Assembly (NCBI GenBank): GCA_023139025.1
Contig: JAGLOH010000003.1
Coordinates: forward strand, 1-21,560
Source: Candidatus Heimdallarchaeota archaeon
GTDB lineage: Archaea > Asgardarchaeota > Heimdallarchaeia > Heimdallarchaeales > Heimdallarchaeaceae
Length of the DNA stretch: 21,560 nt
Reading direction: 5' to 3'
The notes below the pieces were generated by a model. The model had not been told where the DNA came from and searched no databases. It worked only from the letters and a program-made list of their open reading frames with translations. Position 1 is the first letter of the stretch, and every line of letters starts with the position of its first letter. Below, one piece after another: positions 5,927-18,414 of the stretch. Both the position numbers and the translations under genes were made by a program.

Positions 5927-6010
5927 CTGTTGAAACTATTGAGTAAAACTTTTAATTAAGTAATTATAATATGTATTAGCGACCCGTATTATTTTGCTTA
6001 GGTGATTTAT

Positions 6011-7108
6011 TTGGTCAAAACAACTATAAGTTTACTCAAAGCTGATATAGGATCATGTCCTGGTCATGTAACTGTTTATGAGCCTTTAATGGTTAGAGCT
6101 GAAGAACTGATGGAAAAAGCTAAGGATGAAAATGTCATTCTTGATTTCGTTGTGTTCAATGCTGGCGATGATACTGAACTCCTTTTATCACATTCTAAGG
6201 GAGTTGACAATGAAGCGATACACAAGCTTGCTTGGGATACTTTTATGACACTTGGAAAGGAAGCTAGAGAGATAGGACTCTATGGTGCTGGACAAGATCT
6301 GTTGAAAGATACTTTCACAGGAAACATAAAGGGAATGGGTCCTGGATGTGCTGAATTTGAATTTGAGGAACGTCCAGCAGAGCCTTTACTTGTTTTTGCG
6401 ATGGATAAAACAGAACCAGGGGCATTTAATTATCCTATTTTTCAAATGTTTGCTAATCATTTCAATACAGCTGGTTTGATTATAGATCCAAAACTGCATG
6501 AAGGGTTTACTTTTTCTGTTATGGATGTCTATAAGAACAAAATTGTTGATTTAAGCTGCCCAGAACAGATGTATGATCTTCTTGCGTTAATTGGTGCTCC
6601 AGGAAAATATGTTGTTAAGTACGTTTATAGCAAAACTCCAGATCTTGGAATAGCAGCAGCTATTTCAACAGATAAATTATCCCTTATAGCCGGTAAGTAT
6701 GTAGGAAAAGATGATCCTGTTGCAGTGATTAGGAGTCAAAGTGGTTTTCCAGCTGTAGGAGAGATAGTTGAGGCTTTTACTTTGGGTCATTTGGTTTCAG
6801 GTTGGATGCGAGGTTCCCATCGCGGACCACTTATGCCTGTTTCACTTGAATATAGTCAATGTGTCCGATTTGATGGTCCCCCTAGAGTTGTTGCACTAGG
6901 TTTTCAATTGAAAAACGGCATATTCAAAGGAGGTGTAGATTTATTCGATGATCCATCTTTTGATTCTACACGAACAAGAGTCAATGAAATTGCTGAATAT
7001 ATCCGTAGGCATGGACCTTTCGAACCTGGTCGTCTTCCTTTGAGTGAAATGGAATATACAACATTACCCGGTGTGCTTAAGAAATTGGAGGATAAATTCC
7101 ACGATTAG
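6011..7108 (+). CDS. fbp: Bifunctional fructose-1,6-bisphosphate aldolase/phosphatase (class V FBPase, FBPA/P)
   Basis: (M)VKTTISLLKADIGSCPGH matches the characteristic N-terminus MKxTxSxIKADxGS..GH of this archaeal-type family, and length (~365 aa) fits. I prefer TTG 6011, preceded by AGGTGAT (6000..6006, SD-like), over the listed GTG 6002, which lies inside that SD. Confidence 0.9.
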   Translation: MVKTTISLLKADIGSCPGHVTVYEPLMVRAEELMEKAKDENVILDFVVFNAGDDTELLLSHSKGVDNEAIHKLAWDTFMTLGKEAREIGLYGAGQDLLKDTFTGNIKGMGPGCAEFEFEERPAEPLLVFAMDKTEPGAFNYPIFQMFANHFNTAGLIIDPKLHEGFTFSVMDVYKNKIVDLSCPEQMYDLLALIGAPGKYVVKYVYSKTPDLGIAAAISTDKLSLIAGKYVGKDDPVAVIRSQSGFPAVGEIVEAFTLGHLVSGWMRGSHRGPLMPVSLEYSQCVRFDGPPRVVALGFQLKNGIFKGGVDLFDDPSFDSTRTRVNEIAEYIRRHGPFEPGRLPLSEMEYTTLPGVLKKLEDKFHD

Positions 7109-7551
7109 TCTTGAATTTCATCTCTTTTTCTTTCTTCCTCTCTTGTTTTTTCAAGTCGTATCTCTTTTTCACTTAAAAGCATGTAAATAAAATATCTTAT
7201 TGGTTCATGAAGTGGTTGATAGATACTTGGATTAAAATCATGAAGATGAGTACATAGATCGTCAATAACAAATTCATCTGTTTCAAGGTCGTAAATCAAA
7301 GGATAGTATCTACACCCTTCTGGTCTATCCTCATAGATAGAACATCTTTTATCATTTAGAAAGAAACATCGACCATCTATGTTTCTTAAAACCATAAATC
7401 CTTCTTTTTCTACTAGAAACTCATCAATTTGGAATCCTAATTTTTCAATTCTTGTTATGTCTTTTTCTCCTAGAGGCATTTCTGTTTCTAGACAGCATTC
7501 ATAACAATTGTCTGCATATGGACAATAGAATTCTAAATCTGGAAGAGTCAT
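7105..7551 (-). CDS. YkgJ/UPF0153-family cysteine-cluster (putative Zn/Fe-S) protein
   Basis: Cys cluster FYCPYADNCYECC plus downstream DGRCFFL..KRCSIYEDRPEGCRYYP is typical of the CxxCxxCC family. The ATG at 7551 (M10) avoids overlap with the upstream gene. Its stop codon overlaps the convergent fbp stop (7105..7108). Confidence 0.75.
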   Translation of the reverse strand: MTLPDLEFYCPYADNCYECCLETEMPLGEKDITRIEKLGFQIDEFLVEKEGFMVLRNIDGRCFFLNDKRCSIYEDRPEGCRYYPLIYDLETDEFVIDDLCTHLHDFNPSIYQPLHEPIRYFIYMLLSEKEIRLEKTREEERKRDEIQD

Positions 7552-7555
7552 TTTT

Positions 7556-8941
7556 TCACCTTCGTGCTTGAATCTCAATTACTGATTCCATAAGTTTTCC
7601 TTTAAATTCAATTGCTAGTTCTTCTATTGTTTCCTCATTATCTGCTTCAATTGTCATTCTAATTACAGGTGAAGTATTAGATGGCCTAATTAGAACCCAG
7701 CCTTCTTTCAAGTTGATTCTAACACCATCCATAGTATTAATATCCTCATATTTTGATAGTAATTTCTTCTTTAGTAAATCTACTGCAGCAAATTTGATAT
7801 CATCTTCGCAATGAATTTCTTCCTTTCTTAAGGGATACGTTGGGATTTTATCTACTAAAGTTGACAATCTTATCTTCTCTTTATTAAGTATTTCTGCAAT
7901 CTTAAGAGGTGTAACAAGTGCATCATCAAAGAGAAAATATTCAGGTAAAATAATATGACCACTAGATTCAACACCCAAGGGCGATTTTTCGTTTTTTGCC
8001 TCGATTGTCAAAAAGGTGTGTCCAACAGGAATCTGTTTTACTCGATAACCTAAAGGTTCAAGTTGTTCGGCTACAGATTTTGAACATTCTACGTTTGCAA
8101 TAATTGTCCCTTCTTTTTTAGATAAGCCATAAAGACCAATAATTATTCCTGTTTGATCTGCAGAGAGAATTCTCCCCAAATCATCTACGATTACAGCTCT
8201 ATCTCCATCTCCATCAAATGCTACTCCAAAATTACATCCTTTCTTTGTAACTGCTTTAACCAATTCAGTCAGATTTTTTGGTTTTGGATCAGATGGTCTT
8301 CCTGAGAAAGTAGGATCAGTATCACAATAGATTCGTGTAATTTCAATTCCCAAGGATGAAAAAATTTTTGGAGCTGATAATGTGGTGCTACCACCACCGC
8401 AATCTAGTGCAACTTTCATTTTTTCTGTGAATTTGAATTTTTGTTTAAAAAACTCCTCATACTTATCCTTAATCTCATAGGAAATTGAACTTCCAATTTC
8501 TCTCCATCCCACAAGTAAATATTTTTCATCTATAGTTATATCTCTAATCTTCATTAATTCTTCTTCTGAAAAACCAACACCGTCTGAATGATAGAATTTT
8601 ATGCCGTTCCATTCAGGTGGAAGATGGCTTGCTGTTACAAACGCTGTTGCTGTTTTTTCTAAAAACCACCCCGCATAAAGGGTTTGCCCGAATGCTGTTG
8701 TACCTACGTAAACTACATCAATTCCAGTTGCTGTTACCCCAGAAATAAAAGAATAAACTAATGGGATACTAGACTGTCTAATTTCATTGCCCACAACAAC
8801 TTCTTTGCCTTTTAATGTTTCTTTAACATATGTCCCAAAGGCTAAACCTATTTTATACATTAATGGTGGAGAGATATCCTTATTGTAAATTCCTCGTATA
8901 TCATATGCTCGAAATATATTTGGGGAGATATCTTTGTTCAT
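7556..8941 (-). CDS. Phosphohexomutase family (phosphoglucosamine mutase / phosphomannomutase / phosphoglucomutase)
   Basis: IFRAYDIRGIY at the N-terminus, phosphoserine loop TASHLPPEWNGIKF (variant of TASHNP), Mg site FDGDGDRAV, sugar-binding GVESSGH. Substrate is not assignable from sequence alone. Confidence 0.9.
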   Translation of the reverse strand: MNKDISPNIFRAYDIRGIYNKDISPPLMYKIGLAFGTYVKETLKGKEVVVGNEIRQSSIPLVYSFISGVTATGIDVVYVGTTAFGQTLYAGWFLEKTATAFVTASHLPPEWNGIKFYHSDGVGFSEEELMKIRDITIDEKYLLVGWREIGSSISYEIKDKYEEFFKQKFKFTEKMKVALDCGGGSTTLSAPKIFSSLGIEITRIYCDTDPTFSGRPSDPKPKNLTELVKAVTKKGCNFGVAFDGDGDRAVIVDDLGRILSADQTGIIIGLYGLSKKEGTIIANVECSKSVAEQLEPLGYRVKQIPVGHTFLTIEAKNEKSPLGVESSGHIILPEYFLFDDALVTPLKIAEILNKEKIRLSTLVDKIPTYPLRKEEIHCEDDIKFAAVDLLKKKLLSKYEDINTMDGVRINLKEGWVLIRPSNTSPVIRMTIEADNEETIEELAIEFKGKLMESVIEIQARR

Positions 8942-9019: not shown

Positions 9020-9757
9020 ATGCACGTTTCAGTTGTATATATTCTTGTTTTCTTGAGTTCATATTTGATTGGATCAATTCCTTTTAGTTGGATAATTACT
9101 AAGATTAAGACTGGAGAAGATTTAAGAAAAATTGGTTCAGGTAACGTTGGTGGGAGAAATGTATATCGAGCTACAAAATCTAGAAATTGGGCATTGTTTG
9201 CAGGTTTTCTAGATGTTGCTAGATCAGTAACAGCTGTAGCTTTACCATTTTATCTATCAAATATCTTGTACTTCCAAAATTTTCCACAATATAACATACC
9301 TCTTACAGATTTTTTCCCAGATACAGCACTCGGATTTAGTCTTACCGTTGCTGGAGTAGCAGCTATTTTTGGACATAATTGGTCAATCTATCTTCTCCCT
9401 GGCCATGCAGGAAGAGGAATTACTGTAGTTCTTGCATCAATGTTATATGCTAATCCAATAATGATTGTATTTTGGATTATTTTGTGGCCTATTGTCATAA
9501 CTATTGTAGGTTACTCTTCGATTACCTATATTATTACTACTGCATTAGTTGGGGTCATTGCATTGTTCTTCCCAGTAGTAATGCCTTGGGCACCCTATAA
9601 TTTGGCAGTAGCTATTATTCTCTTCAGTGTAGCAATTATTATGATTAGCAGACAAAAGGACAACATTAGAAAAATCAGAACAGGTGAAGCAAAAAAAATG
9701 AAAATATGGAAAGCTCTGAGAGGTAAAAAGAAGCTTTCCGAAGAAATATTGAAATAA
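9020..9757 (+). CDS. plsY: PlsY-family (COG0344) polytopic membrane protein, putative glycerol-phosphate acyltransferase
   Basis: YLIGSIPFSWII and GSGNVGGRNVYR (cf GSIPF and GSGNxGATN), FGHNWSIYL...GRGITV (cf HxxP...GGKGVAT, here diverged). Multiple hydrophobic helices throughout. Confidence 0.75.
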   Translation: MHVSVVYILVFLSSYLIGSIPFSWIITKIKTGEDLRKIGSGNVGGRNVYRATKSRNWALFAGFLDVARSVTAVALPFYLSNILYFQNFPQYNIPLTDFFPDTALGFSLTVAGVAAIFGHNWSIYLLPGHAGRGITVVLASMLYANPIMIVFWIILWPIVITIVGYSSITYIITTALVGVIALFFPVVMPWAPYNLAVAIILFSVAIIMISRQKDNIRKIRTGEAKKMKIWKALRGKKKLSEEILK

Positions 9758-9761
9758 AAGA

Positions 9762-9781
9762 GGGTAAGAAAAATCTTACCC
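9762..9781. terminator. Perfect 8-bp stem / 4-nt loop hairpin between convergent plsY and arsM
   Basis: GGGTAAGA aaaa TCTTACCC lies in the 35-nt gap between the two stop codons (9757 and 9793). It could act in both directions. Function is inferred only. Confidence 0.45.
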
Positions 9782-9792
9782 CTAACACTCTA

Positions 9793-10635
9793 TCAGTTTT
9801 TTTTCGCGGTAACAGTTATGCTTTGAATAGATTCTCCAATGCTCATAACATCTTCAATGTCTACATCGATATCTTCCAAATCTACCTCTTCACCACCAAT
9901 AATCAGCTTAGATTTTGGTTCTACCTCTTTCTTCTCCCCTTTTACTTCGTGTTTGAGGTTAGTTCCTTTTTGCTGGACTTGGATATCTTTAAAACCTGCA
10001 TTTTCAATCATTTCCAAATATCTGTTCTTCAATTCAGCACCAGATACACATGCAGCAAGAAGCTTTTTGTTATCTCGAATTGCTTCAGGAAGCGGTTTAA
10101 GAAGAACAATATCTGATATTGCGATTCTTCCTCCTGGTTTAAGAACACGATATGCTTCATCAAATACACGTTGTTTTTCAGGTGAAAGATTAATAACACA
10201 ATTAGAAATTATTATATCAACAGAATTATCAGCAACTGGAAGATTTTCGATCTCTCCAAGTCTGAATTCGACGTTTGTAAAGTTGTTTTTTTCTGCATTA
10301 TCGCGTGCTAAATCAATCATATCAGGAGTCATATCAACACCAATTACCTTTCCAGTTGGACCTACTTTTTGCGATGAAAGAAAGCAGTCAAGCCCACCAC
10401 CTGCTCCAAGATCAAGTACTACTTCACCTTCTTTGAGCGAAGCTATAGCTGTTGGGTTTCCACAACCTAATCCCATATTAGATGCATCTGGGATTGATAA
10501 TAGTTCTTCTTGAGAATACCCGATTGCTTTGCTTACATCTGTTGATTTTGAACTATCTCCACAACAGGAAGAACCTCTTCTAGCTACTTTTGCATAACTA
10601 TCTCTTACACTTTTTTTTACTTCTTTAGATTTCAT
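9793..10635 (-). CDS. arsM: Arsenite S-adenosylmethionine methyltransferase (ArsM/AS3MT family)
   Basis: VRDSYAKVARRGSSCCG N-terminus, GLGCGNP, SAM motif VLDLGAGGGLDCF, GVDMTPDMIDLAR, IISNCVINLSP and LLAACVSGA. These cover the conserved As(III)-binding cysteine positions of the family. Confidence 0.9.
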   Translation of the reverse strand: MKSKEVKKSVRDSYAKVARRGSSCCGDSSKSTDVSKAIGYSQEELLSIPDASNMGLGCGNPTAIASLKEGEVVLDLGAGGGLDCFLSSQKVGPTGKVIGVDMTPDMIDLARDNAEKNNFTNVEFRLGEIENLPVADNSVDIIISNCVINLSPEKQRVFDEAYRVLKPGGRIAISDIVLLKPLPEAIRDNKKLLAACVSGAELKNRYLEMIENAGFKDIQVQQKGTNLKHEVKGEKKEVEPKSKLIIGGEEVDLEDIDVDIEDVMSIGESIQSITVTAKKN

Positions 10636-10668
10636 TTAAATCATCCTTTTTGTTCTTGTAATTCCTGT

Positions 10669-10788
10669 TCAACAACAGGTTTGTTTCTTTTTCTCTTGTT
10701 CAGAGCTTTTCTCATTGCTTTCTTCACAACAATTCTCGTTGGAAGTTTCTTCATATTTTTCTTCATATCTTTCTTCATCCATTTTCAT
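10669..10788 (-). CDS. Unannotated 39-aa acidic micro-ORF with two vicinal Cys pairs (MKMDEERYEEKYEETSNENCCEESNEKSSEQEKKKQTCC)
   Basis: Hand translation of the 172-nt gap between the AbrB-like gene and arsM. GGAGGT (10795..10790) sits upstream of ATG 10788 and of a second ATG at 10782 with better spacing. Same strand as both neighbours. It is below the length cut-off of the ORF track. Coding status is unproven. Confidence 0.4.
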   Translation of the reverse strand: MKMDEERYEEKYEETSNENCCEESNEKSSEQEKKKQTCC

Positions 10789-10807
10789 TACCTCCTTATT
10801 GGTGAAC

Positions 10808-11089
10808 TTAATCTTCTACTAACTCCTCCATTATGGGTTTAAGGGCAACTTTGACCATACCATCTATTTTGTCAGCTTTCATTAGAGAAATACTAGACAA
10901 TACTCCTTTTTCTCGCATACTGATAACAATCAACCTGTCTCCTTCACTAATTTTCATTTTGTCTCGCAAAACTTTGGGTAGAACTATTTGCCCTCTACTA
11001 TCCACATGAACAACACCTTCAATGTGACAGCATCCTAAATCTTCTGTACTAGAAGGGCAACAAGGTTCTGTTTTCTTCGTTGTATTCAT
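10808..11089 (-). CDS. AbrB/MazE/SpoVT-type DNA-binding protein with Cys-rich N-terminal extension (CC-x8-CC)
   Basis: VDSRGQIVLPKVLRDKMKISEGDRLIV is the swapped-hairpin SpoVT/AbrB signature. It is preceded by TEPCCPSSTEDLGCCHIEG. Confidence 0.8.
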   Translation of the reverse strand: MNTTKKTEPCCPSSTEDLGCCHIEGVVHVDSRGQIVLPKVLRDKMKISEGDRLIVISMREKGVLSSISLMKADKIDGMVKVALKPIMEELVED

Positions 11090-11118
11090 TGTTCTCAGAA
11101 TATGTGAAAATACGGAGA

Positions 11119-11126
11119 TATATAAA
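11119..11126 (-). promoter_or_regulatory. TATA-box candidate (TTTATATA on minus strand) for the AbrB-like / micro-ORF / arsM unit
   Basis: Matches the archaeal TATA consensus. Its centre is about 33 nt upstream of ATG 11089, implying a very short leader. Confidence 0.45.
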
Positions 11127-11132
11127 TCTTCC

Positions 11133-11158
11133 GAAATTTCAGAAATTTCAGAAAAATC
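11133..11158. promoter_or_regulatory. Tandem palindromic repeat GAAATTTC-a-GAAATTTC-a-GAAAAATC (9-bp period), candidate operator
   Basis: Two perfect copies of the self-complementary octamer plus one degenerate copy. They sit directly upstream of the minus-strand TATA/BRE position, between the two divergent promoters. Confidence 0.4.
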
Positions 11159-11185
11159 TACAACGTCTTCTATCTTTTGTAAATG

Positions 11186-11193
11186 CTTTTAAT
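11186..11193 (+). promoter_or_regulatory. TATA-box candidate (CTTTTAAT) for the Fap7-like gene
   Basis: It ends 23 nt before ATG 11216, consistent with a leaderless transcript. It also argues against the listed ATG at 11183 as the start. Confidence 0.35.
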
Positions 11194-17502: not shown

Positions 17503-18414
17503 TTATTTAGCTGATTTTTTTGAGGTTTTTGCTTTAGATTTTGTAGCTTTTTTACTTGGTGTTTTCTTTGGTTTTGCGGCTGTCTTACTTGGTGTTTTCT
17601 TTGGTTTTGCGGCTGTCTTACTTGGTGCTGTTTTTGGTTTTGCGGTTGTCTTACTTGGTGCTGCTTTTGGTTTTGCGGTTGTCTTACTTGGTGCTGCTTT
17701 TGGTTTTGCGGTTGTCTTACTTGGTGCTGCTATAGTTTTATCTTCAACTGGTTTTTCAGGTGTTTCTTTAGGCTTTTTTGGAGGGGTTTTTCTTGTTGTT
17801 TTCTTTTTAATAGTTCCTGTTTCTACTAAACGAAGTCTCGATGTTGACTTTATAACGACTCTATAATAAGATCCATTTTCTCCCATATCTGGATTTCGAA
17901 CGATTTTGATAACATCACCAGGTTTTGCTTGAATAGCTTTCACAGCTGCATCACTTTCTAGGATTTTAGGTATTTGATGTTTTTCAATTTGGTATCTCTC
18001 TAAGAAGTACTTTATTTCCGGTGATTTAAGCATAACATGTTGACGAACCATTGCATGATCAAAGATGTTAAACAGTGGATTGTTACTACTTATAATTTCA
18101 ATACCCAGTTTAATTGACTCTTTCTTTGCATAATGAGTTAAAGGTGATTCTGCAATAAGGAGGGCTTCACCAAGCTTTTCTTCCTCTTGTAGTTTTCCTA
18201 AAAGTCTAATTAATTTTACTCCAATTTGAGGATTTTTTGGAAATCGTGCAATTGCTGTTATCTTTTCTTTTTTTTCAGAAATTTTATCAGCATAAATGTC
18301 TAGGAAATCGTCATCTTCTTTGGTATTTTTAATTTGAAATCCTCTAAATTCAAGAATTTCTTTAACACCATCCATTATCCTCTTTTCCTTAGCCTTTTGT
18401 TCTTTAGAAGACAA
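17503..18414 (-). CDS. rpoH: RNA polymerase subunit Rpo5/RpoH, full-length Rpb5-like (N-terminal Rpb5 domain + H domain) with a Lys/Pro/Ala/Thr-rich repeat tail
   Basis: C-domain: NIFDHAMVRQHVMLKSPEIKYFLERYQIEKHQIPKILESDAAVKAIQAKPGDVIKIVRNP...YYRVVI (cf human [60 protein letters not shown]..YRLV). N-domain: RFPKNPQIGVKLIRLLGKLQEEEKLGEALLIAESPLTHYAKKE (cf [43 protein letters not shown]). TTG start 18414 has GAGGT 7 nt upstream; ATG 18375 is an alternative. Confidence 0.8.
   Translation of the reverse strand: MSSKEQKAKEKRIMDGVKEILEFRGFQIKNTKEDDDFLDIYADKISEKKEKITAIARFPKNPQIGVKLIRLLGKLQEEEKLGEALLIAESPLTHYAKKESIKLGIEIISSNNPLFNIFDHAMVRQHVMLKSPEIKYFLERYQIEKHQIPKILESDAAVKAIQAKPGDVIKIVRNPDMGENGSYYRVVIKSTSRLRLVETGTIKKKTTRKTPPKKPKETPEKPVEDKTIAAPSKTTAKPKAAPSKTTAKPKAAPSKTTAKPKTAPSKTAAKPKKTPSKTAAKPKKTPSKKATKSKAKTSKKSAK
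17549..17731 (-). repeat. 33-bp tandem repeat, ~5.5 copies, in frame within the rpoH-like tail (11-aa unit APSKTTAKPKA)
   Basis: The anchor TTACTTGGTG recurs at plus-strand 17552, 17585, 17618, 17651, 17684 and 17717, an exact 33-nt period. The three central copies are almost identical. Confidence 0.9.

Follow-up and report, generated by a model that had tools for sequence, protein, structure and literature searches.

How might an arsenite methyltransferase gene be controlled when no ArsR-type regulator is encoded in its surroundings? This question is raised by a stretch of DNA of 21,560 nucleotides (nt) from Candidatus Heimdallarchaeota archaeon (contig JAGLOH010000003.1), hereafter called the window, in which three co-oriented open reading frames (ORFs) follow each other on the minus strand from position 11089 to 9793: a gene for an AbrB-like protein of 93 amino acids (aa), an acidic ORF of 39 aa (the micro-ORF), and a gene for a methyltransferase of 280 aa. 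An earlier note on this DNA had remarked that these three consecutive ORFs all carry pairs of adjacent cysteines (CC), and this is indeed the case. Together (412 aa) they contain five CC dipeptides, where 0.047 would be expected from the 1.07% Cys across the window proteins; all eight cysteines of the two small ORFs sit in CC pairs, and the remaining 6228 aa of the window contain two such pairs. Among the ORFs of at least 90 aa in the 21.5-kb window, none matches an ArsR-type helix-turn-helix (HTH) domain, and the window contains no match to HgcA/CdhD or to an HgcB-type ferredoxin, the scope of both statements being the window and not the whole genome. Based on the comparisons presented here, we consider it likely that the AbrB-like protein is a local DNA-binding regulator of the cassette, and we propose, with a probability of about 0.55-0.6, that it acts as an autoregulatory repressor of the abrB-like/arsM cassette with a thiophilic metal(loid) as its signal.

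In most sampled loci, the genes encoding relatives of the 93-aa protein are located directly in front of arsM. The loci were obtained by scanning unannotated genomes, one per GTDB species (33 loci), by scanning metagenomes (the best 80 of at least 597 loci), and by looking up individual proteins. This gave 126 loci besides the window (cited below by number, such as L001), nine of which have too little downstream DNA, leaving 117 that are informative. An arsM homologue is present downstream on the same strand within 100 nt in 97 of the 126 loci and at a distance of 100-1000 nt in another 12; hence, the AbrB-like gene directly precedes an arsM homologue in 109 of the 117 informative loci (93%). 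The next gene is hgcA, recognized by its cap-helix motif NVWCAAGK or by a Pfam CdhD match followed by a ferredoxin, in four loci, and the downstream context is a different one in the last four. The earlier note had suggested determining whether homologues of the 93-aa protein are associated with arsenic genes, and for the sampled loci these counts provide a positive answer.

The hosts of the cassette include archaea (Heimdall- and Promethearchaeota, Bathyarchaeota, Methanomicrobiaceae, Methanomethylicia, and Thermoplasmata) as well as bacteria (Spirochaetota, Dehalococcoidia, and Deltaproteobacteria/Syntrophia), and the gap between the AbrB-like gene and the next gene is -4 to about 40 nt in most loci. 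The identities of the AbrB-like and ArsM proteins to their counterparts in the window are correlated (Spearman 0.43, p = 7e-6), which is consistent with inheritance as a unit. The genes located beyond arsM are heterogeneous and often convergent; therefore, we rejected the presence of additional operon members after arsM and regard the unit as a two-gene cassette. One related bacterial locus encodes AbrB-like, ArsM, ArsR, thioredoxin and ArsP proteins, another contains an ArsC gene divergent from the AbrB-like and ArsM genes, and in a third arsM is followed by a thioredoxin gene. Thus, the absence of ArsR that had been pointed out for this DNA holds for the window, but it is not a trait of the family.

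The 93-aa protein starts with MNTTKKTEPCCPSSTEDLGCCH, which is followed by a SpoVT/AbrB domain matching PF04014 (32.4 bits, cut-off 24.7) and TIGR01439 (43.2 bits, cut-off 28.3), so that the DNA-binding domain behind the reported N-terminal CC tag is substantiated by both Pfam and NCBIfam. The protein also matches the NCBIfam equivalog NF040962, 'HgcAB-associated protein HgcC', with 87.0 bits (cut-off 70), and its residues 20-89 cover profile positions 1-70 of 70. No match to HTH_5 or HTH_20 was obtained at E <=1 in Pfam or NCBIfam. In an AlphaFold2 monomer model based on 72 diverse homologues, core residues 20-70 have predicted local distance difference test (pLDDT) values of 83-92, residues 72-91 form a C-terminal helix, and the N-terminal tail (about residues 1-22) is disordered (pLDDT <50). 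The top Foldseek matches of the core are SpoVT (2w1t), the N-terminal domain of AbrB (1yfb, 1z0r, and DNA-bound 2k1n), Sso7c4, 2l66, 5itm and MazE, with probabilities of up to 1.0 and about 30% identity; owing to the small size of the domain, the E-values remain weak (about 0.03). Both the sequence models and the predicted fold identify the 93-aa protein as a member of the SpoVT/AbrB swapped-hairpin class. In the alignment of the 72 family sequences, D30, G33, Q34 and R42 are invariant and K39 is nearly so, and AbrB-type dimerization and DNA binding would be consistent with the conservation of R42, K39 and Q34 and with the repeat array at the promoter described below, which lend them indirect support.

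The family is large. A profile search of 1.84 billion cluster representatives returned 702 relatives at E <=1e-3 and 165 at E <=1e-10, and a word-indexed search gave at least 3873 clusters (90% identity) at E <=1e-5. The exact 93-aa protein is on record from Candidatus Heimdallarchaeota metagenome-assembled genomes, and the source names of the relatives are 'AbrB family', 'antitoxin PrlF' and, for a few NCBI records, 'HgcC'.

Upstream of the AbrB-like gene lies an operator-like array, TTCTGAAATTTCTGAAATTTCGGAA (Table 1), which consists of the pentamers TCTGA, TCTGA and TCGGA at positions 11152-11148, 11143-11139 and 11134-11130, respectively. Tandem Repeats Finder reported a period of 9 nt and 3.3 copies at 11124-11154, a second repeat search agreed, and within the window the pattern is matched without mismatches at this one site. 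The third pentamer overlaps the expected position of the TFB recognition element (BRE). By analogy with archaeal promoter architecture, we infer that TTTATATAT acts as a promoter element; TTTATA[AT]AT is found at the same position in 12 Heimdall loci.

The array is enriched in front of the AbrB-like genes when upstream regions of 200 nt are compared with other 200-nt windows of the same loci. The motif TCNGA-N4-TCNGA is present in 65 of 114 upstream regions versus 4 of 3650 background windows (Fisher p about 1e-103), and its strict three-unit version in 25 of 114 versus 0 of 3650. When up to two mismatches are allowed in the 12 informative positions, three units are found in 104/124 upstream regions (84%) and in 20/3867 background windows (0.5%), although, the loci being interrelated, none of these counts represent independent events. 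The unit consensus is TCWGAWWWW. In the Heimdall loci, the array has been kept even though the surrounding intergenic sequence has diverged, and it is also present in distant archaea and bacteria. In archaea, it abuts the TATA box with its last unit at the expected BRE position, and in bacteria, it is located between or just after TTGACA-type -35 and -10 elements, overlapping the core promoter. The hgcA-linked loci L068, L091 and L123 contain the same array, and the AbrB-like gene is the sole regulator-like gene that the array-bearing loci have in common. Outside these promoters, about 0.8 Mb of loci yielded only five arrays, and we rejected the idea of further systematic operator copies as none of the five is systematic. 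One of them is a high-scoring three-unit TCWGA-W4 array at positions 1138-1164 of L012, 2.2 kb upstream of the AbrB-like gene, which may mark a second regulated promoter; the others resemble coding sequence.

The third feature of the family is its cysteine pairs. In the 93-aa protein, C10, C11, C20, C21 and H22 are located in the N-terminal tail (codons 11027-11062), which precedes the DNA-binding core of residues 23-70; among 18 close homologues, the first pair (C10, C11) never varies, and C20, C21 and H22 each show a conservation of at least 90%. Among the best 150 representatives (50% identity), 135 contain at least one CC and 84 at least two. According to the alignment of 72 diverse members, a pair preceding strand 1 (consensus CC-[KRS]-VE) is present in 49, a pair at the start of strand 4 (G-x-V-CC-I-x-L-x-K) in 62, and an extra pair further upstream in 21. 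At the strand-4 site, the Heimdall proteins have Ser-Ser (or Ala/Thr-Ser), which in the window protein is Ser65-Ser66, and they have a second invariant CC ten residues farther up the tail, together with a conserved His after the proximal pair. We argue that, since the number of pairs is kept while their position shifts, the pairs themselves are the selected feature. The hgcA-linked members (L068, L091, L123/L124) have the same cysteines as the rest of the family. As a separate observation, the HgcA tails encoded after the AbrB-like genes of L068 (about 5950-6100) and L091 (about 760-900) carry N-terminal vicinal Cys pairs as well (GGGCCAPASGKAAPCCGGG and GSPCCGT, respectively), and CC pairs are therefore a recurring feature of the regulator, ArsM and HgcA alike.

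Taken together, these comparative data (the pairing with arsM across the two domains of life, the Cys pairs and the promoter array) support the regulatory part of the earlier proposal, in that the AbrB-type protein is functionally tied to arsM and looks like its transcriptional regulator. A mechanism may be envisaged in which swapped-hairpin SpoVT/AbrB dimers or tetramers would bind the three TCWGA pentamers spaced by four A/T bases. The pentamers run into BRE/TATA in the window and overlap or follow the -35/-10 elements in the bacterial relatives, so that the bound protein would block initiation of transcription. The conserved vicinal Cys pairs, of which most members carry one just ahead of strand 1 and one where strand 4 begins, and the Heimdall proteins both in the N-terminal tail, would offer a thiolate site to a thiophilic ligand, As(III) being the most plausible one, and binding of this ligand would lower the affinity for DNA and, hence, derepress arsM. 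Binding to the array, repression rather than activation, and the identity of the ligand are what we infer from these patterns, and As(III) would be the most economical candidate ligand, being the substrate of ArsM. Since close relatives that share these cysteines and this operator are encoded upstream of hgcAB, control by the family appears to include mercury as well as arsenic methylation operons.

Several observations weigh against this model. At the site of the internal CC, whose conservation in the family is at least 86%, the window protein has Ser65-Ser66, and its sensing site, if any, must therefore be built differently. Furthermore, both of its N-terminal pairs are located in a segment that is predicted to be disordered (pLDDT <50). 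An array directly upstream of a TATA box could equally serve an activator. A few members stand alone or precede other genes (L115, L053 and L059). Finally, the sampling favors relatives of the window protein, the loci are not independent in phylogenetic terms, and the ratio of arsM to hgcA partners is that of this sample, not that of the whole family.

It should be noted that the signal sensed by the CC pairs could, instead of As(III), be the redox state, methylarsenite, Hg(II) or Cd(II). We consider it rather unlikely that the protein regulates arsM in such a way, with the Cys pairs forming a redox switch or responding to Hg(II), Cd(II), Zn(II) or methylarsenite (MAs(III)). In favor of this possibility, MAs(III) needs two thiolates only, and in a Shewanella ArsR a vicinal Cys pair alone constitutes the MAs(III)-selective site. 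In addition, H22 is conserved beside C20-C21 in the Heimdall clade, and the same family, cysteines and operator precede hgcAB, the substrate of whose products is Hg(II). It has also been shown that the ArsR-like regulator that is co-transcribed with hgcAB in P. mercurii ND132 responds not only to arsenic but also to S-adenosylhomocysteine (SAH) (bioRxiv 10.1101/2022.10.17.512643). On the other hand, in 93% of the informative loci the gene is paired with arsM, whose product has As(III) as its substrate; some of the loci are located inside ars clusters with ArsC, ArsR and ArsP; and most members have two CC pairs per monomer, which is enough for the three-thiolate site that is typical of As(III).

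If the model of an As(III)-responsive repressor is extended to the entire family, it would represent a structurally new class of transcription factors that sense metal(loid)s, in which vicinal cysteines on an AbrB fold control arsM and hgcAB via (TCWGA-W4)n in anaerobic Bacteria and Archaea, and in which the cysteines of the Heimdall proteins have moved from strand 4 to the tail, one sub-clade having added a CC-rich micro-protein. We hold this broad view tentatively, at somewhat less than even odds. The metalloregulator families include ArsR, MerR, CsoR, Fur, NikR and others, and we know of none that is based on the AbrB fold. In several aspects, the proposed system resembles ArsR/SmtB: a small regulator is encoded first in the operon, Cys clusters that include vicinal pairs are the candidate As(III) ligands, there is a link to both arsM and hgcAB, and the position of the sensing cysteines differs between lineages, as it does in ArsR, whose sites arose independently at several positions. 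The AbrB-like protein differs from ArsR/SmtB in being a swapped-hairpin barrel instead of a winged helix, and its candidate operator is a tandem array of pentamers instead of an ArsR-type inverted repeat. In function, therefore, the kind of system is a known one, in which a local repressor that responds to a metalloid controls a resistance or transformation operon, but in this case the repressor would be built on a different fold.

The comparison with the AbrB, Abh and SpoVT proteins of B. subtilis also shows similarities and differences. The N-terminal DNA-binding fold is alike (Foldseek probability 1.0, about 30% identity), as is the predicted layout of the binding site, in which pentamers with a degenerate center are joined by A/T tracts. 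B. subtilis AbrB, which usually represses, binds to paired TGGNA pentamers in tandem or inverted orientation, separated by 4-5 A/T bases (PMC3025583), whereas the pentamer is TCWGA here. Moreover, the B. subtilis proteins are global regulators that have no metal-sensing cysteines and possess a different C-terminal multimerization domain, whereas the 93-aa protein is proposed to be a dedicated local regulator with CC pairs and a single C-terminal helix.

With respect to NF040962, the hgcA-linked members share the size, fold, Cys pairs and TCWGA-W4 operator of the window protein. The association with hgcA/hgcB implied by the HgcC name, however, is not encountered in the window, and the partner in the sampled loci is predominantly arsM. 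In addition, two of the proteins labelled HgcC or 'HgcAB-associated' by NCBI adjoin arsM with no hgcA within 3-5 kb, and a third one stands alone. This suggests that many members are misleadingly labelled by the name 'HgcAB-associated protein HgcC'. An AbrB/PrlF/MazE gene upstream of hgcA has been proposed, without tests, to be the archaeal regulator of hgcAB (Zhang et al. 2023, PMC10349881), and regulation of hgcAB is known only for the ArsR-like protein of a single bacterium (bioRxiv 10.1101/2022.10.17.512643), of which the AbrB-like family would be an analogue with a different fold. The literature on 'HgcC' yielded unrelated acronyms only. In the searchable literature, we found no experimental characterization of the family, no paper linking arsM to an AbrB/SpoVT/MazE-type gene, and none describing the Cys pairs or the operator of the family. 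Hence, the statement in the earlier note that a regulator of this type is uncharacterized is correct as far as experiments in this literature are concerned, but the family had already been catalogued (NF040962) and its hgcA-linked members had been noticed and put forward as hgcAB regulators. New here are the dominant pairing with arsM among the sampled relatives, the conserved but relocatable Cys pairs, the shared (TCWGA-W4)3 operator, and the Heimdall variant with its micro-ORF.

These results may have implications for our understanding of metal(loid) methylation in anaerobes. Anaerobic cultures containing a functional ArsM often fail to methylate arsenic, possibly because arsM is not induced (PMC9213503), and the family provides a concrete and widespread candidate regulator (at least 3873 clusters) for the control of arsM and hgcAB in such organisms. 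The predicted operator and the predicted sensing residues permit electrophoretic mobility shift, reporter and mutant experiments to be designed directly. If the model is verified, the AbrB fold would join the metalloregulator families, and the control of arsenic methylation would be linked to that of mercury methylation, both of which govern the toxic methylated species of rice paddies and sediments.

The micro-ORF located between the two genes deserves separate consideration. The earlier description of an unannotated acidic ORF of 39 aa that contains NCC, ends TCC-stop and is preceded by GGAGGT is accurate, with the specification that the conserved start is the second ATG. The micro-ORF is present in seven loci of one Heimdall sub-clade (the window, L001-L004, L116 and L117), on which everything said about its distribution is based, and it is absent from the sister Heimdall loci L005-L011 and L118 and from all other arsM cassettes examined. 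The start and the internal CC are conserved in all seven loci, and the stop directly follows the terminal CC in six of them (L001 ends CY). The spacing between GGAGGT and ATG is the same in L004 and L117, and the element is degraded in L002 (GGAAGT) and L003 (GAAGGT). In L117, whose AbrB-like protein is 73% identical to that of the window, the peptide has three CC pairs, carried by a repeated KCCEQEK unit, and the SS of the window corresponds to a CC. Furthermore, one Cys codon shows a synonymous TGT/TGC change, and gene callers predicted the micro-ORF in two assemblies. These features speak for a peptide conserved across the relatives, and we estimate the odds that the micro-ORF is translated as roughly even.

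The evidence on the other side is considerable. The rest of the peptide diverges among the relatives; the codon differences with respect to the window (synonymous/non-synonymous 1/4, 2/1, 0/4, 5/8, 3/9 and 4/14) are mostly non-synonymous, and purifying selection is not clear. A second frame is open in this region as well, because the DNA is AG-rich. On the coding strand, a 12-nt tandem repeat, GATATGAAGAAA, is present in 2.8 copies (window 10746-10778) and encodes a RYEE/KYEE repeat. Variation in its copy number explains the differences in length of the micro-ORF among the relatives, and two 12-nt in-frame indels were rejected as evidence for coding because they correspond to copy-number changes of this repeat (Tandem Repeats Finder). 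A hairpin at the micro-ORF stop (10664-10679) was dropped from consideration as it is not conserved beyond the closest relatives. No match to Pfam or NCBIfam was obtained, and exact look-ups of six variants of the peptide in the protein collection found no record. The micro-ORF cannot be regarded as a feature of the family either, since other long gaps between the AbrB-like gene and arsM contain an enoyl-CoA hydratase gene, an AhpD-like ORF or an ORF for a hydrophobic peptide.

The suggestion that the micro-protein is ArsD-like is therefore not borne out. Like ArsD, it has vicinal Cys pairs as potential As(III) ligands and is encoded inside an arsenic operon. However, ArsD, which works with the ArsA ATPase, has about 120 aa, a thioredoxin-like fold and a Cys12-Cys13-Cys18 site, whereas the micro-ORF encodes an acidic, low-complexity peptide of 33-39 aa that has no family match and a very narrow distribution, and no ArsA is encoded in the window. 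By these comparisons, it is not an ArsD and is probably a lineage-specific element of one Heimdall sub-clade. That it encodes a small protein which binds As(III), either buffering it or supplying it to ArsM as a chaperone, or, in a weaker form of this idea, that it is a translated Cys-rich leader peptide seems improbable to us.

Another possibility is that the AbrB-like protein itself is a chaperone or substrate-delivery partner, whose CC tails would deliver As(III) to the CC at the N-terminus of ArsM, or supply HgcAB with Hg(II), with the AbrB domain serving only as a dimerization scaffold. Such a role would agree with the tight coupling of the genes, with the NCBIfam name, which makes the protein a third Hgc component, with the CC pairs on the N-terminus of ArsM and on the N-terminal tails of the neighboring HgcA proteins, and with the flexibility of the CC-bearing tail in the AlphaFold2 model. 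We nevertheless judge it quite unlikely, as the DNA-contacting core with its four invariant residues is the most conserved part of the protein, and as an AbrB-type array is present at the promoter of 84% of the cassettes in both domains of life, which a pure chaperone would not need. The two roles are, however, not mutually exclusive. Finally, a function as the antitoxin (MazE/PrlF type) of a type II toxin-antitoxin (TA) pair, which may be suggested by the Pfam name of PF04014 ('MazE_antitoxin'), by the name 'antitoxin PrlF' given to several homologues by the Joint Genome Institute (JGI), and by the discussion of the gene as TA-related in Zhang et al. 2023 (PMC10349881), is highly improbable and was rejected because there is no toxin gene: the downstream gene is arsM or hgcA in nearly all informative loci, no MazF, YhaV or Doc family member occurs among the neighbors examined, and the conserved Cys pairs have no counterpart in the matched MazE/PrlF structures.

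The 280-aa product of the last gene of the cassette is, judged by its motifs and profile match, a bona fide ArsM homologue. It matches NCBIfam NF008823, 'arsenite methyltransferase', with 347.3 bits (cut-off 263), and its best solved relatives are the ArsM proteins of Chlamydomonas and Cyanidioschyzon (PDB matches 5evj, 5.6e-36, and 4fs8/4kw7, 1.7e-30). Cysteines occur in the motifs SSCCG (C24, C25), GCGNP (C58), SNCVINL (C146) and CVSGA (C197), the last three of which align with the catalytic-cysteine motifs of structures 5evj and 4fs8. The alignment is loose in the N-terminal region, where the C24/C25 pair lies close to the first conserved cysteine of CmArsM, so that one member of the pair probably corresponds to this canonical cysteine. 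Thus, SSCCG and the canonical cysteines listed in the earlier note are all present, but the pair is not entirely an addition to the canonical set. The window ArsM also shows a weak match to the NCBIfam 'ArsM/AhpD domain selenoprotein (UU)' models. In a bacterial locus, L125 (3323-3625; also in L126), an AhpD/CMD-like ORF ending ...KACCE is located between the AbrB-like gene and arsM; it is interrupted at VGCYP*ME by an in-frame TGA, which may be a CxxU selenocysteine site. The features of the cassette in the window are collected in Table 1, in which the terminator-like hairpin at 9782-9751 is the probable end of the operon.

Table 1. Position of the genes and sequence elements of the abrB-like/arsM cassette in the window.
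Feature	Position	Strand	Basis or remark
AbrB-like protein, 93 aa, SpoVT/AbrB fold, NF040962 ('HgcC') family	10808..11089	-	Pfam, NCBIfam, AlphaFold2, Foldseek, conservation
ArsM, S-adenosylmethionine (SAM)-dependent arsenite methyltransferase homologue, 280 aa	9793..10635	-	NF008823, PDB matches
Micro-ORF, acidic, with CC pairs, 39 aa (first ATG) or 37 aa (conserved ATG 10782)	10669..10788	-	
Shine-Dalgarno-like GGAGGT, 7 nt before conserved ATG 10782	10790..10795	-	
Operator-like array, three pentamers, 9-bp period, AATT spacers	11130..11152	-	Sequence, repeat finding, cross-locus conservation
TATA-box-like element TTTATATAT	11118..11126	-	Starts 37 nt upstream of the AbrB-like ATG, directly after the array
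Terminator-like hairpin GGGGTAAGA-TTTT-TCTTACCCT, then T-rich tail	9751..9782	-	

With regard to the surroundings of the cassette, the Pfam content of the window (RNA polymerase Rpb5, CofC/CofD, fructose-bisphosphate (FBP) aldolase/phosphatase, and OapB/OapC) is archaeal in character, and the gene order OapB, kinase, AbrB-like, ArsM, PlsY, PGM is syntenic across the Heimdall loci. A block reading ATTAAAAGCATTTA on the minus strand (11180-11193), which separates the operator array from the divergent AAA_18 kinase-like gene, has been kept in every Heimdall locus. It is probably the TATA region of the kinase-like gene, in which case the kinase likely starts at ATG 11216 and not at 11183, the start given by the ORF finder. 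One of the only two other CC-containing ORFs of the window encodes a PF03692 CxxCxxCC-domain protein of 157 aa (7105-7578, minus strand; putatively Zn/Fe-chelating), which is located 2.2 kb from the arsM cassette and for which no link to the cassette was seen. Lastly, a 303-aa ORF (17503-18414, minus strand) combines a restriction-endonuclease-like Mrr_cat domain (residues 15-109, E 3e-4) with an RNA polymerase Rpb5 C-terminal domain (residues 115-187, E 1e-21) and a Lys/Pro/Ala-rich tail containing 5.5 copies of the 11-aa unit APSKTTAKPKA, encoded by a 33-nt tandem repeat (17552-17731); archaeal RpoH normally consists of the C-terminal domain alone.

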